Source of the DNA: a virus
Virus record (IMG/VR): IMGVR_UViG_3300045988_067321
Location: 1-39,446 of that record
Reading direction: 5' to 3' (one strand)
DNA length: 39,446 bases
The translations under genes and the position numbers were made by a program. Within the stretch, counting starts at the first letter, position 1, and every line of letters starts with the position of its first letter. The notes beneath the pieces are model-generated. The model was not told the origin of the DNA. It saw only the letters and a list, made by a program, of their open reading frames with translations, and made no database searches. Positions 1 through 39,446 of the stretch are shown piece after piece.

Positions 1-119
1 GAACAGTATAATCTAGCTTGTGGACACTGTGTAAGACATTGAAATACCGCATGGTATCATCTCCAATGCAGTAGTGGTTGAAGCAAGAATCCCCCTGCTT
101 TAGCTGTGGGGAGTGTCAA
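1..119 (+). repeat. Terminal direct repeat identical to 39328-39446. It is the last 119 nt of the IS200/IS605 right end, so the window closes on itself (circular or circularly permuted molecule).
   Basis: Base-by-base identity of 1-119 and 39328-39446 read directly from the sequence. Confidence 0.9.
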
Positions 120-136
120 CAAACATTATGAAAAGA
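1..136 (+). ncRNA. 3' part of the predicted TnpB omegaRNA scaffold (1-119) plus the predicted guide segment (120 to about 135, CAAACATTATGAAAAG).
   Basis: Lies directly downstream of tnpB after circular closure. Contains the RE hairpin (91-111) and a small hairpin ATACC-GCAT-GGTAT (45-58). Guide position inferred from the known IS200/IS605 TnpB architecture. Confidence 0.4.
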
Positions 137-565
137 GCATGGGGAATGGTTAAGAAATTAGGATTCGGAATCTCCGAAGCTTTGAAAAAGGCATGGAAGG
201 AAGCGAAAGCAATGAAAGAAGAAATCATCAAAATGACTGTTGTGAGAAATGAAATCTTTACAGTAAACACAACAACTGGAGAAATCAGCGGAAAAACTTA
301 CAATGCAAAAGAATGGCTTAAGAAGAGTTTTGATGCAAAATGGAACAAAGAAACAAGAACTTGGGTTGCGAAACCGGAAGAAATCAAAGAAGAATTGGCA
401 AAATATCCGGGATACTATGAATCATACATCGTTAAAGAAAGCAAAGAAGTTGCAGCGATTGAAAACGATGAAATCATCAAAAAAGAACTTGTAAACAGAA
501 ATGATGGTTTTTACTCAAAAAACACTCACAAATCAGGAAAAATCACATACTCATTTGTAGGATAA
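128..565 (+). CDS. Hypothetical Lys/Glu-rich protein, first gene of the accessory cassette. Its native 5' end (7 codons, RBS, promoter) was split off by the IS insertion.
   Basis: Open frame 113-565. No usable RBS before ATG 128. Fusing 37626-37644 to base 120 continues this frame exactly. Confidence 0.6.
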   Translation: MKRAWGMVKKLGFGISEALKKAWKEAKAMKEEIIKMTVVRNEIFTVNTTTGEISGKTYNAKEWLKKSFDAKWNKETRTWVAKPEEIKEELAKYPGYYESYIVKESKEVAAIENDEIIKKELVNRNDGFYSKNTHKSGKITYSFVG

Positions 566-2629: not shown

Positions 2630-3034
2630 TTACTCGCCCTCCGAATCATTTTCCCTTAATTGCAATAATACATTTTTTAATTTTTCTGGTATCGGAGCCA
2701 TAACAGCTGCATTTTCCAACAAACTAATACCCTCATTCGCGATATAAAACATTATCACTACTTCTCGCAAAGGAACGGTATCATTTAATAATTTTTGTAT
2801 TGCAAATGCTACTGCAATCACGATAAACATTGTTATTTTCTTGATCAGCCCCTTAAATCCAATCTCGGAAGAGAGCTGATTTTGGTGTATAGCTTTTAAA
2901 ATGCCTGTTATGTAGTCGATTACAGCTAAAAATAGAATCGTTTTTAGCAAAATATCCCACCCGCCGAGCCAGTATACGATAACTCCTCCTACCGCACCGA
3001 TTACCATACTTAAGTTGTTAAATAATTTTTCCAT
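2630..3034 (-). CDS. Holin (Phage_holin_4_1 / TcdE-like family).
   Basis: Three hydrophobic segments, IDYITGILKA and FYIANEGISLLEN motifs. Adjacent to the endolysin. Confidence 0.85.
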   Translation of the reverse strand: MEKLFNNLSMVIGAVGGVIVYWLGGWDILLKTILFLAVIDYITGILKAIHQNQLSSEIGFKGLIKKITMFIVIAVAFAIQKLLNDTVPLREVVIMFYIANEGISLLENAAVMAPIPEKLKNVLLQLRENDSEGE

Positions 3035-15604: not shown

Positions 15605-15694
15605 GCTTCATTCTCCTTTCGTCTTAGGTAGTTTTAGGCGTGTTACCATCCGCCACGAATTGACTGTTTAAGGTCTAATCAACTGACCAAAAGG

Positions 15695-22859: not shown

Positions 22860-22932
22860 CAGGCGCAATCGGAATCGAACCGATGACATATGGCTTTGGA
22901 GACCATCGCTCTACCAACTGAGCTATACGCCC
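22860..22932 (-). tRNA. tRNA-Trp (anticodon CCA).
   Basis: Hand-folded cloverleaf: GGGCGTA-TA-GCTC-AGTTGGTA-GAGC-G-ATGGT-CTCCAAA-GCCAT-ATGTC-ATCGG-TTCGATT-CCGAT-TGCGCCT-G. Confidence 0.85.
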
Positions 22933-37265: not shown

Positions 37266-37476
37266 TTTGTTACTAACGGAACCGTATTATCTCTATTTTT
37301 ATTTGCTCTATTCCGACTAACTAAACAGTCGAAAAACGGCTTAAAATCAACGTTTTTCATCACTTTCATTGATTTTAAGCCATTCCTTTTAAATACTTCT
37401 ATTTTAATATTTTATTAAAAGTATATAACGATTTTAGTGGGTTTTCAAGCATTTTTGTTACTAACGTGTTACTAAC
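37255..37476. promoter_or_regulatory. attP region with arm-type integrase binding repeats.
   Basis: TTTGTTACTAA in tandem at 37255 and 37266, (T/G)TGTTACTAAC in tandem at 37454 and 37466. A 12-bp inverted repeat GGCTTAAAATCA/TGATTTTAAGCC lies at 37338 and 37370. Confidence 0.6.
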
Positions 37477-37511
37477 GCGTTTAAATTAAGATGATACAAT
37501 ATATTCTTTTT

Positions 37512-37541
37512 CGCCCTCTCTTTCTGGGAGGGTGATTTTTT
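37512..37541 (+). terminator. Rho-independent terminator downstream of int/attP.
   Basis: CGCCCTC-TCTTTCTG-GAGGGTG followed by ATTTTTT. Confidence 0.6.
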
Positions 37542-37562
37542 AAATTATTTTTCATTTTCCTA

Positions 37563-37591
37563 TTGACTTTACGCCAATATTGGCGTATAAT
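37563..37591 (+). promoter_or_regulatory. Consensus promoter of the accessory cassette, with an operator palindrome in the spacer.
   Basis: TTGACT-17 nt-TATAAT. The spacer contains the perfect 16-bp palindrome ACGCCAATATTGGCGT (37571-37586). Confidence 0.75.
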
Positions 37592-37625
37592 AAGTTCATA
37601 AGATAAAGCAAAGGAGATACGAAAG

Positions 37626-37644
37626 ATGAAAAAATACAACTTAT
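37626..37644 (+). other. Orphaned 5' end (RBS, ATG and 6.3 codons, MKKYNL) of the gene continued at base 120.
   Basis: AAGGAGA lies 8 nt before ATG 37626. Joining 37644 to 120 gives ...TTA TCA AAC ATT ATG..., in frame with 113-565. Confidence 0.65.
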
Positions 37645-37660
37645 CCAATGTGTCGTAAAA

Positions 37661-37681
37661 CCCCTTGCTTTAGCTATGGGG
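37661..37681 (+). promoter_or_regulatory. IS left-end subterminal hairpin (TnpA recognition).
   Basis: CCCCTTGCTTTAGCTATGGGG. Differs from the RE copy by a compensatory pair (T:A versus C:G) and shares a bulged T. Confidence 0.7.
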
Positions 37682-37738
37682 ATATAAGACACTTCCATCG
37701 AATTTACGCAAGTAATTGAAGATGGAACAAAAATACTC

Positions 37739-37767
37739 TTGTATTAGATTTTGAAATGGTATATAAT
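37739..37767 (+). promoter_or_regulatory. Putative tnpA promoter. It would give a leaderless or near-leaderless mRNA.
   Basis: TTGTAT-17 nt-TATAAT, with the -10 ending 6 nt before ATG 37774. Confidence 0.4.
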
Positions 37768-37773
37768 ACACAT

Positions 37774-38196
37774 ATGAATATTGCATATAAATCTAATAAT
37801 AATATAGTCTATTCTTGCAAATACCATGTTGTGTGGTGTCCTAAGTATAGACGCAAAATTTTAACAAATGGAATAGATACCCGATTAAAGGAACTTCTTC
37901 TTGAGTATGCTGCAAATATTTCTGTAGACATCATGGAAATGGAAATCATGCCAGACCATGTACACATACTCATGGAGGTAGACCCTCAGTTCGGTATTCA
38001 CAAAGCGGTTAAATCATTAAAAGGATATACTTCAAAAGTTTTGAGAAATGAATATCCATCATTGAAAACAAGAATGCCGTCACTGTGGACCAACAGCTAT
38101 TTTGTATCAACGGTTGGTGGTGCTCCGCTTGATGTAATCAAGCAGTATATCGAAAATCAGAAAACATCGCAAAGACAAAAGGATAAACTGGGATAA
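37774..38196 (+). CDS. tnpA: IS200/IS605 Y1 (HUH) transposase TnpA.
   Basis: YSCKYHVVWCPKYRRKIL, HUH motif PDHVHIL, catalytic Tyr in WTNSYFVSTVGG. ATG 37756 lies inside the putative promoter, so 37774 is preferred. Confidence 0.85.
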   Translation: MNIAYKSNNNIVYSCKYHVVWCPKYRRKILTNGIDTRLKELLLEYAANISVDIMEMEIMPDHVHILMEVDPQFGIHKAVKSLKGYTSKVLRNEYPSLKTRMPSLWTNSYFVSTVGGAPLDVIKQYIENQKTSQRQKDKLG

Positions 38197-39293
38197 TGCA
38201 AAAAGGTATCAAATTTAGAATCTACCCGAATAGGGAACAGCAAAATTTAATCAATCAGACACTTGGCTGTTGCAGACTCATCTACAACAAAGGACTTGCT
38301 ATGCGTAATGAAGCCTATGAGAATGGCAATAAAATTGGCTATGCTCAGACTTCGGCTATGCTGACCGAGCTTAAAAAGTGTGAAGATTTTGCATTTCTTA
38401 AAGTGGTAGATTCTATTGCGTTACAGCAGTCTTTACGTGATTTGGACAGAGGTTTTGTGAACTTTTTTCAGAAACGTGCTGCACACCCAATATTTAAGAG
38501 TAAACATAACCGCCACCAGTCCTACAGAACGATCAATCAAGGTGACAATATCCGCATTGCAGGAAAATATTTAAAACTTCCAAAACTGGGATATGTGAAA
38601 GTTCGTCAGTCGATGGAAATTGGAAAAATCCATAATGTAACCATTGAACATACTCCAACAGGCAAGTATTTTGCAGTGCTGAATGTGGAATTTGAACCAC
38701 AACCAATGCCTAATAAGGGCGGTATGATAGGTATTGATGTAGGTATAAAAGAATTCTATTCCGACAGCAACGGAAATGTTGTGGCAAATCCCAAATATCT
38801 TGAGAAGTCCATGCGTAAGCTTGTGCGTGAACAGCGTAAACTGTCACGCAAACAAAAAGGCTCAAACAATCGTAATAAACAACGTGTAAAAGTTGCTTTA
38901 GTCCACGAAAAGATTACTAATCAGAGAAACGATTTTTTACAAAAGCAATCAACTATACTGATTCGTGAAAACCAAACAATCTGCATAGAAGATTTGAAAG
39001 TAAAAAATATGATGCGTAATCATAAACTGGCACAACACATAGGTTCTGCGTCGTGGAGTAAGTTTTTTGATATGCTTGCATATAAGGCTGTCTGGTATGG
39101 GAATGATGTTGTAAAAGTACCGACTATGTATCCAAGCAGTCAGACATGTTCTTGTTGTGGATATAAGAATCCACTGGTAAAAAATCTGACAGTTCGTATA
39201 TGGGAATGTCCAGACTGTCATACAGTGCATAACAGAGATAGCAATGCAAGCATAAACATCTTGAATAAAGGACTGCAAATGCAGTCAGCATAA
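38196..39293 (+). CDS. tnpB: TnpB RNA-guided nuclease (OrfB_IS605 plus Zn ribbon).
   Basis: RuvC triad candidates IGIDVG, ICIEDL, HNRDSNASINI. Zn ribbon CSCCG...CPDC. The start overlaps the tnpA stop (TAATG). Confidence 0.9.
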   Translation: MQKGIKFRIYPNREQQNLINQTLGCCRLIYNKGLAMRNEAYENGNKIGYAQTSAMLTELKKCEDFAFLKVVDSIALQQSLRDLDRGFVNFFQKRAAHPIFKSKHNRHQSYRTINQGDNIRIAGKYLKLPKLGYVKVRQSMEIGKIHNVTIEHTPTGKYFAVLNVEFEPQPMPNKGGMIGIDVGIKEFYSDSNGNVVANPKYLEKSMRKLVREQRKLSRKQKGSNNRNKQRVKVALVHEKITNQRNDFLQKQSTILIRENQTICIEDLKVKNMMRNHKLAQHIGSASWSKFFDMLAYKAVWYGNDVVKVPTMYPSSQTCSCCGYKNPLVKNLTVRIWECPDCHTVHNRDSNASINILNKGLQMQSA

Positions 39294-39327
39294 ATATATA
39301 TATAAGACTGCACCGTAGGGCATACGG

Positions 39328-39446
39328 GAACAGTATAATCTAGCTTGTGGACACTGTGTAAGACATTGAAATACCGCATGGTATCATCTCCAATGCAGTA
39401 GTGGTTGAAGCAAGAATCCCCCTGCTTTAGCTGTGGGGAGTGTCAA
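39328..39446 (+). repeat. Terminal direct repeat, the partner of 1-119.
   Basis: Identical to 1-119. Confidence 0.9.
39418..39438 (+). promoter_or_regulatory. IS right-end subterminal hairpin (the same sequence as 91-111).
   Basis: CCCCCTGCTTTAGCTGTGGGG followed by AGTG TCAA. Confidence 0.7.

Follow-up and report, generated by a model that had tools for sequence, protein, structure and literature searches.

In the insertion sequence (IS) IS608, cleavage falls 3' of a tetranucleotide at the left end and at TCAA at the right end, and the four nucleotides that lie 5' of a hairpin foot pair with the cleavage site (PMC3201880). Cleavage of the donor joint by the nuclease TnpB, with a transposon-associated motif (TAM) identical to the target of the transposase TnpA, has since been described (PMC10055086), and a 2026 review treats "transposon non-restorative homing" against coinfected phages or plasmids as a theoretical mode, citing a population of plasmids through which an IS605 insertion spread in a TnpB-dependent manner (PMC13565253). 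IS200/IS605 elements are common in phage genomes, including contigs of gut phages. Here we analyze one such element in a 39,446-nt stretch of viral DNA (IMG/VR record IMGVR_UViG_3300045988_067321, positions 1 to 39,446), referred to below as the window. We read it as an intact autonomous IS200/IS605 insertion sequence with TnpA, TnpB and a predicted omegaRNA, inserted very recently into a phage gene, and give this reading a probability of about 85%. The element is of a well-known kind; its value is that of a natural experiment, in which the same phage is found with and without the IS, between flanks free of mismatches.

Ends of the element and the empty site

The window carries an exact terminal repeat of 119 nt (1-119 = 39328-39446), so that base 120 lies directly after base 39446 and the DNA closes into a circular phage genome with a unique length of 39,327 bp. 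Relatives of the element (Table 1) were collected by searching public collections for its hairpin pattern, which is present in more than 119 IMG/VR contigs, and every locus retrieved was compared by alignment with the 1,802-bp sequence. In nine full-length relatives, which are 77-87% identical, the alignment spans bases 1 to 1802 of the query. Nearly all of the left junctions in relatives (n=48) read TTAT followed by CCA(A/G)TG, and all but one of the right junctions (n=95) end in GGGGAG(T/AA)GTCAA, beyond which unrelated sequence begins. An ambiguity of one base (C) at the junction is settled in favor of 37645-39446 by this comparison within the family, which takes in the ends of the relatives and of the chromosomal copies described below. 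Terminal inverted repeats are absent, and both ends have subterminal imperfect hairpins in the same orientation on the top strand. The TTAT ends 16 nt 5' of the left hairpin, while the right end extends 8 nt beyond the right hairpin and closes in TCAA (39443-39446); these coordinates agree with those of a first-pass annotation made from the sequence alone.

Table 1. Features of the insertion locus, in window coordinates
Feature	Position	Strand	Basis or remarks
IS200/IS605 element, complete, 1,802 bp	37645-39446	+	CCAATG...GTCAA, 3' of TTAT
Assembly overlap, second copy of the final 119 nt of the IS	1-119	+	identical to 39328-39446
TTAT, TnpA target and left cleavage site, predicted TnpB TAM	37641-37644	+	junctions of relatives and chromosomal copies
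Putative left-end guide tetranucleotide AAAA	37657-37660	+	IS608 rule of PMC3201880
Left subterminal imperfect hairpin CCCCTTGCTTTAGCTATGGGG	37661-37681	+	21 nt
tnpA, Y1 HUH transposase	37774-38196 (alternative start 37756)	+	Pfam Y1_Tnp, 1.8e-44
tnpB, 365 amino acids, RNA-guided nuclease by homology	38196-39293	+	Pfam HTH_OrfB_IS605, OrfB_IS605, Cas12f1-like_TNB
Predicted omegaRNA scaffold and right end	39282-39446	+	covarying structure, model R1, 95 right junctions
Putative right guide tetranucleotide GAAT	39414-39417	+	5' of right hairpin
Right subterminal hairpin CCCCCTGCTTTAGCTGTGGGG	39418-39438 (= 91-111)	+	21 nt
Predicted 16-nt omegaRNA guide CAAACATTATGAAAAG	120-135	+	donor-joint model (PMC10055086)
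Phage DNA from the prophage/host junction (att boundary 37403/37404)	37404-37562	+	L349 compared with L351
Terminator-like hairpin upstream of interrupted gene	37511-37535	+	sequence scan
Promoter-like TTGACT-17-TATAAT of interrupted gene	37563-37591	+	11/12 matches; now reads into the IS
AAGGAGA ribosome-binding site	37611-37617	+	interrupted gene
Interrupted gene, 5' fragment ATG AAA AAA TAC AAC TTA T	37626-37644	+	start codon 37626-37628
Interrupted gene, 3' part CA AAC ATT ATG ...	120-565	+	stop 563-565

The insertion point falls in codon 7 (T/CA) of a gene for a hypothetical protein of 154 amino acids. Joining 37644 to 120 restores this open reading frame (ORF) in frame. The predicted empty-site 19-mer, CAACTTATCAAACATTATG, occurs exactly in 55 IMG/VR contigs, nearly all with an uninterrupted gene whose product begins M(K/R)KYNLSNIMK(R/N/K)AW; the apparent conservation of the 19-mer at the DNA level partly reflects how the loci were retrieved. 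The closest IMG/VR contigs (L004, L010, L022 and L045) have the same promoter and ribosome-binding site before an intact gene, and in L004 and L022 both flanks of the window abut at the predicted base. An intact homologue of 154 amino acids (P0001) is 97% identical, and the intact gene was also called in L349, L351, L352 and L354.

Isogenic alleles were retrieved by exact look-up of the neighboring HTH_3 protein (623-1066), started at ATG 623. Two contigs with the IS, L350 (ENA ERZ28645204) and L353 (ERZ27276044), are 100% identical to the window, and every filled site found (window, L350, L353) belongs to the same phage strain. L351 (ENA ERZ28648284) is free of the IS and agrees with the window without a mismatch across 6,445 nt, of which 2,498 nt are left flank and 3,947 nt right flank; its flanks abut at the predicted insertion point. 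Between the filled site and this isogenic empty site no base is gained or lost, and a target-site duplication is absent. L352 also lacks the IS and is 99.9% identical. The insertion locus is described by three junction sequences, CAACTTATCCAATGTG, GAGTGTCAACAAACATT and the empty-site CAACTTATCAAACATTATG. The right-junction 20-mer had 0 matches in IMG/VR and 1 unrelated match in the JGI metagenomes; the left-junction 16-mer had 41 matches in IMG/VR, none followed by the IS, and these are chance matches. Exact protein look-up returned no record for the truncated ORF (113-565, 128-565) or for ORF 599-1066.

The junctions of relatives, ten chromosomal copies and the empty site all agree, and the insertion point is defined to the nucleotide, as the first-pass annotation had claimed. 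Its rejoined gene, in frame behind an AAGGAGA site and a consensus promoter, is likewise found intact in relatives. The empty site that it proposed to look for in related genomes is present in the 55 IMG/VR contigs and in L351, with the junction and the continuity of the gene as predicted, and the isogenic, IS-free L351 bears out its statement that the predicted target is the IS-free allele of this same phage.

Because the IS is a 100% identical repeat at many chromosomal sites, a multi-copy host IS might have been wrongly threaded into a phage contig during assembly. The overlap of 119 nt stops exactly on the final base of the IS, suggesting a branch point of the graph; in a k=119 de Bruijn graph a second outgoing edge would arise here if identical IS ends adjoined other flanks in the sample, as fits the many identical chromosomal copies. 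Both junctions nevertheless lie at one TTAT with no base lost or gained, unlike a chimera, and the same structure was reached through three k-mer overlaps in different ENA/TPA assemblies. If the excess lengths are taken as k-mer overlaps (k=119, 141, 55), each assembly gives the same circle (39446-119 for the window = 39468-141 for L353 = 39382-55 for L350 = 39,327 bp), although L353 and L350 were opened at other points than the window. Since three independent assemblies imply this one circle, a chimeric assembly is very improbable.

Exact look-up of the TnpB protein led to ten bacterial chromosomal loci in which the IS is 99.4-100% identical over 1,802 nt (1802/1802 in two of them). These copies occupy six different sites, all with (A/T)TTAT on the left and with different right flanks. 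The occurrence of near-identical copies both at these six sites and in the phage argues that the element has been mobile recently. The exact TnpB protein is present on 571 contigs, under the NCBI name "IS200/IS605 family element RNA-guided endonuclease TnpB", and is annotated in Faecalimonas umbilicata and in "Lachnospiraceae". The host flank of L349, an integrated copy of the phage, encodes a DUF1700 protein of F. umbilicata. This flanking protein and the annotation of the exact TnpB identify the host as the gut bacterium F. umbilicata (Lachnospiraceae). GenBank phages held no close copy of the IS, the best match being Enterocloster phage CB473P3, with 73% identity across 68% of the query; at lower identity, the IS has matches in 40 GenBank phage records.

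Transposase, nuclease and predicted omegaRNA

The best match of TnpA among solved structures is the TnpA of IS608 (2VHG/2A6M; E 1e-56, approximately 60% identity over 136 aligned residues). The HUH motif is H68-V-H70 and the catalytic tyrosine lies in KQY131IENQ (numbering of the 146-residue form), with HVHIL aligned to the HIHIL of IS608. Translation probably starts at the ATG at 37774 rather than at 37756, since NCBI calls a protein of 140 amino acids in identical copies (L341, L342, L346). The ATG of tnpB overlaps the stop codon of tnpA by one base (TAATG). Along its entire length TnpB can be aligned with the ISDra2 protein (8BF8/8EXA/8H1J), its RuvC residues D181/E265/D348 matching D191/E278/D361 of the latter, and both CxxC pairs of the zinc ribbon are present (C318/C321 and C338/C341). 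This alignment upholds the three RuvC acidic motifs and the zinc ribbon that had been read from the sequence, and the call of an intact TnpA-TnpB element of the IS200/IS605 type is sustained by the Pfam domains, the matches to IS608 and ISDra2, and the exact ends. Among solved structures, the top match to TnpB comes from no natural protein but from an "AI-designed/AI-generated RNA-guided nuclease" (9YYG/9YYH, E 2.8e-95), which ranks a little ahead of ISDra2 TnpB (4e-87).

The left and right hairpins differ only at positions 5 and 16, which are paired with one another in the predicted fold (T:A versus C:G); in this fold T17 is bulged and T6/T15 are mismatched. Among the relatives, the hairpins covary at three pairs, 5/16, 6/15 and 7/14. 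The AAAA at the putative left guide position fits TTAT as the AAAG of IS608 fits TTAC, and left guide and target mostly vary together in the relatives, AAAA being found with TTAT and AAAG with TTAC (L218, L276, L251).

The loci of relatives also contain single-hairpin mini-elements about 45 nt long, scattered over many different sites (L192, L199, L146, L245, L092, L113/L070/L056, L262, L204, L062, L160/L074 and L232). In each, TTAT is followed by CCAATGTGTCGTAAAA-hairpin-AGTGTCAA, so that the initial 16 nt of the left end lead into one hairpin, after which come the final 8 nt of the right end. They resemble either products of deletion between the two hairpins or minimal non-autonomous elements. 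One relative, at L061 (12542-13520), has decayed through internal deletions and retains only segments 157-438, 598-833 and 1387-1802 of the query; it indicates that the family also leaves dead copies in viral contigs.

In 28 relatives the noncoding right end is more conserved than the adjoining coding sequence. RNAalifold predicts five helices at the right end, of which only the last corresponds to the TnpA hairpin; helices like the remaining four would be needed for an omegaRNA scaffold. In alignment A2, 99.7% of 725 cells form standard pairs and 9 of the 29 pairs are changed on both sides, while in a control on the same alignment, with the partners slid by 1-3 columns, pairing falls to 27-58%. 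A covariance model of the 3' end had been proposed as a check, and the model R1, built from the right end of the element, scores 179 bits on the window itself. Searched against two ISDra2-like elements from plasmids of Deinococcus, R1 matched both over its full length, with scores of 38.2 and 34.5 bits (E 9e-11 and 1.5e-9). The TnpB proteins of these elements are 81-82% identical to ISDra2 TnpB, and the matches are placed exactly at the 3' end of tnpB, the displayed alignment (L348) ending in UCAA. No omegaRNA family of Rfam was found in a scan of the whole window at gathering thresholds or in an E-value scan of 39000-39446, which gave only sub-threshold chance matches.

The omegaRNA would run out of the right end into the flank, which makes bases 120-135 its predicted guide. 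With TTAT, the TnpA target, as TAM and the right flank as guide, the predicted target is the scarless empty site. The first-pass annotation had arrived at the same target (TTAT plus 16 nt), and it is consistent with the published donor-joint model (PMC10055086). TTAT and guide together are perfectly matched in 33 of the 55 empty-site contigs from IMG/VR, and 20 more are mismatched only at guide position 16; the contigs carrying the target span several phage lineages, with different promoters and C-termini.

Prophage-encoded derivatives of TnpB that repress the host gene fliC are known (PMC10705468), and a TnpB on a temperate phage could similarly be a domesticated, TldR-like RNA-guided repressor that regulates a host or phage gene. 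This is scarcely credible for the present protein, however. Its RuvC triad is intact, the element retains tnpA together with both of its ends and does not differ from mobile chromosomal copies, and apart from the right junction, where TCAA stands in place of TTAT, the window contains no near-match to the guide.

A number of observations weigh against our reading of the element. Much of the covariation at the right end comes from one diverged clade, and the independent compensatory events are therefore few. The folding energy of the right end does not differ significantly from that of shuffled sequences (z = -0.37), and those of the hairpins are no better than shuffled. The earlier argument that a compensatory pair and a shared bulged T indicate selection on structure is therefore upheld as to the positions, the bulge and the covariation, but not by folding energy. 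The pairing of guide and target has exceptions, with AAAG beside TTAT (L140 group) and AAAA beside TTAC (L273). Intact motifs do not guarantee an active TnpB, since that of IS608 was inactive in an E. coli plasmid-interference assay (PMC10055086). Finally, the contigs with the IS may come from one host lineage or from a few related samples.

Role of the insertion and its prophage setting

On our reading, the IS moved very recently from the F. umbilicata chromosome into a temperate phage of the same host. For the chemistry of transposition, the expression and processing of the RNA, the use of the TAM, cleavage and any effect on competition between phages, we infer the following course. By analogy with IS608, TnpA would have inserted a single-stranded circular element 3' of TTAT without target duplication, the TTAT being selected through pairing with the AAAA 5' of the left hairpin. 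The IS separates the interrupted gene from its own promoter and AAGGAGA site, and IS and gene have the same orientation; the strong promoter of the gene would thus read into tnpA, tnpB and the right end, which makes expression of TnpB and omegaRNA plausible. TnpB would bind the structured 3' omegaRNA, extended by 16 nt into the flank (CAAACATTATGAAAAG), and would cut DNA carrying TTAT and the guide sequence, that is, the scarless empty site. Such cleavage would restore the IS after excision, and the cutting of IS-free copies of this and related phages would be an automatic by-product.

The insertion could also be maintained by an advantage to its carrier, for which the IS would be an RNA-guided weapon or gene drive. 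In a lysogen with the IS or in a mixed infection, TnpB and omegaRNA would cut incoming or resident phages with the intact gene and either exclude them or, through recombination, convert them to the filled state ("non-restorative homing"). The many perfect or near-perfect targets in several lineages (33 contigs, with 20 more that differ at one distal base) would suit such a role, as would the co-orientation of the IS with a strong phage promoter. The phage with the IS is circular in three assemblies; since its genome still assembles as a circle, the phage is probably viable and the interrupted gene probably dispensable. The possibility has been considered in the literature, including the TnpB-dependent spread in plasmids noted above (PMC13565253). 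The contigs in which the site was found filled (L350, L353), however, are all 100% identical to the window. In IMG/VR no further contig is filled at this position, against 55 with the exact empty 19-mer, the scan of JGI metagenomes yielded none, and the same insertion was not seen in diverged backgrounds. We found no sign of selection for the targeting of IS-free phages among these data, and no diverged phage with the IS at this site. The insertion appears too recent to show selection, since the IS does not differ from chromosomal copies, nor the IS-free sibling from the window in its flanks; excluding IS-free siblings would in any case add little, because they share the same immunity region. 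A weapon or drive maintained by its advantage to the phage therefore seems quite unlikely.

A broader proposal is that a prophage with the IS acts as a one-spacer RNA-guided immunity or gene-drive module, transcribed from the phage promoter, that would cut the conserved 20-bp site TTAT-CAAACATTATGAAAAG in dozens of gut phages of several lineages, excluding or converting heteroimmune competitors. We consider this unlikely. If it were true, ordinary hops of IS200/IS605 elements into prophages would be a general, unrecognised source of interference between phages. Under the simpler reading of a recent insertion, the targeting of IS-free phages is no separate trait and would follow automatically from the published TnpA/TnpB mechanism; since the concept is already in the literature (PMC13565253), it is also less novel than the first-pass annotation implied. 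In phages, homing has so far figured in the literature as a possibility, and the only report of TnpB-dependent spread concerns a population of plasmids (PMC13565253). The availability of isogenic phages with and without the IS and of a cultivable host, together with ends, TAM and guide that can be read from the DNA, makes RNA-guided homing or exclusion between phages directly testable.

The interrupted protein matched no Pfam domain and one marginal PHROG of unknown function, and its homologues are all annotated as "hypothetical". Its N-terminal part of about 35 amino acids (MKKYNLSNIMKRAW...ISEALKKAWKEAK; window 37626-37644 and 120-230) is common to many small phage proteins with unrelated C-termini. 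These proteins (P0060-P0120) are about 90-145 amino acids long, and the shared part is 55-97% identical at 23-42% coverage of the query. From their sequences they look like a modular family of unknown function.

The integrated copy L349 (at its position 2256) and the phage form L351 are identical rightward from 37404 and diverge leftward. With this divergence at 37403/37404, the interrupted gene is the first inside the prophage end proximal to the attachment (att) site. Downstream of the integrase gene by about 140 nt, the att core precedes the interrupted gene by about 220 nt and adjoins a host DUF1700/HAAS gene. The downstream neighbor (623-1066, +) encodes a protein of 147 amino acids of the HTH_3/XRE type. 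Integrase, interrupted gene and HTH gene form a plus-strand block, opposed to the genes for lysis and structure on the minus strand (amidase 1552-2589, holin 2630-3034), and this block is probably a lysogeny module. Elsewhere in the window there are a tRNA gene (22860-22932, -; 68.8 bits) and a match to the Rfam cis-regulatory motif GP20-b (15625-15688, -; 46.3 bits, gathering score 36.2).

Comparison with known systems

The element shares with IS608 (ISHp608) of Helicobacter pylori the HUH motif and tyrosine of TnpA, the order tnpA-tnpB, and subterminal hairpins with an extra-helical T. IS608 likewise lacks inverted repeats and target duplication, inserts 3' of a tetranucleotide and ends on the right in TCAA. 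Its 4-nt guides 5' of each hairpin foot (PMC3201880) would correspond to the AAAA and GAAT here. The two differ in target and left guide, which are TTAC and AAAG in IS608 and TTAT and AAAA here, and in spacing. On the left, 16 nt separate target and hairpin here, compared with 19 in IS608; on the right, the hairpin lies 8 nt from the end here, while the TCAA of IS608 is said to be 10 nt away from the foot of its hairpin.

Unlike its IS608-type TnpA, the TnpB of the element is closer to that of ISDra2 from Deinococcus radiodurans (E 4e-87 over the full length) than to other natural solved structures. ISDra2 TnpB has 408 amino acids, whereas the TnpB here has 365 and is without the C-terminal tail. 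Almost all of the predicted omegaRNA follows the stop codon of tnpB, whereas its counterpart in the Deinococcus loci overlaps the ORF. The TAM of ISDra2 is TTGAT, compared with the flanking TTAT here. ISGst2 and related elements of Geobacillus stearothermophilus have the same proposed cycle, in which TnpA excises the element without a scar and TnpB with its omegaRNA cleaves the donor joint, with a TAM that is the TnpA target (TTTAT for ISGst2) (PMC10055086). Those elements were assayed on chromosomes and plasmids, whereas the present one is carried by a phage genome.

The free-standing and intron-encoded homing endonucleases of T-even phages likewise cut the allele that lacks the nuclease in a co-infecting relative, with exclusion or conversion as the outcome (PMC13565253). 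In the T-even phages recognition is by protein and the effect has been demonstrated, whereas here recognition would be by RNA and the effect is predicted only. The prophage TldR proteins also place a member of the TnpB family and a guide RNA on a temperate phage (PMC10705468). TldRs, which work as repressors, no longer have a RuvC triad, a transposase or transposon ends, whereas in the element described here all three are intact.

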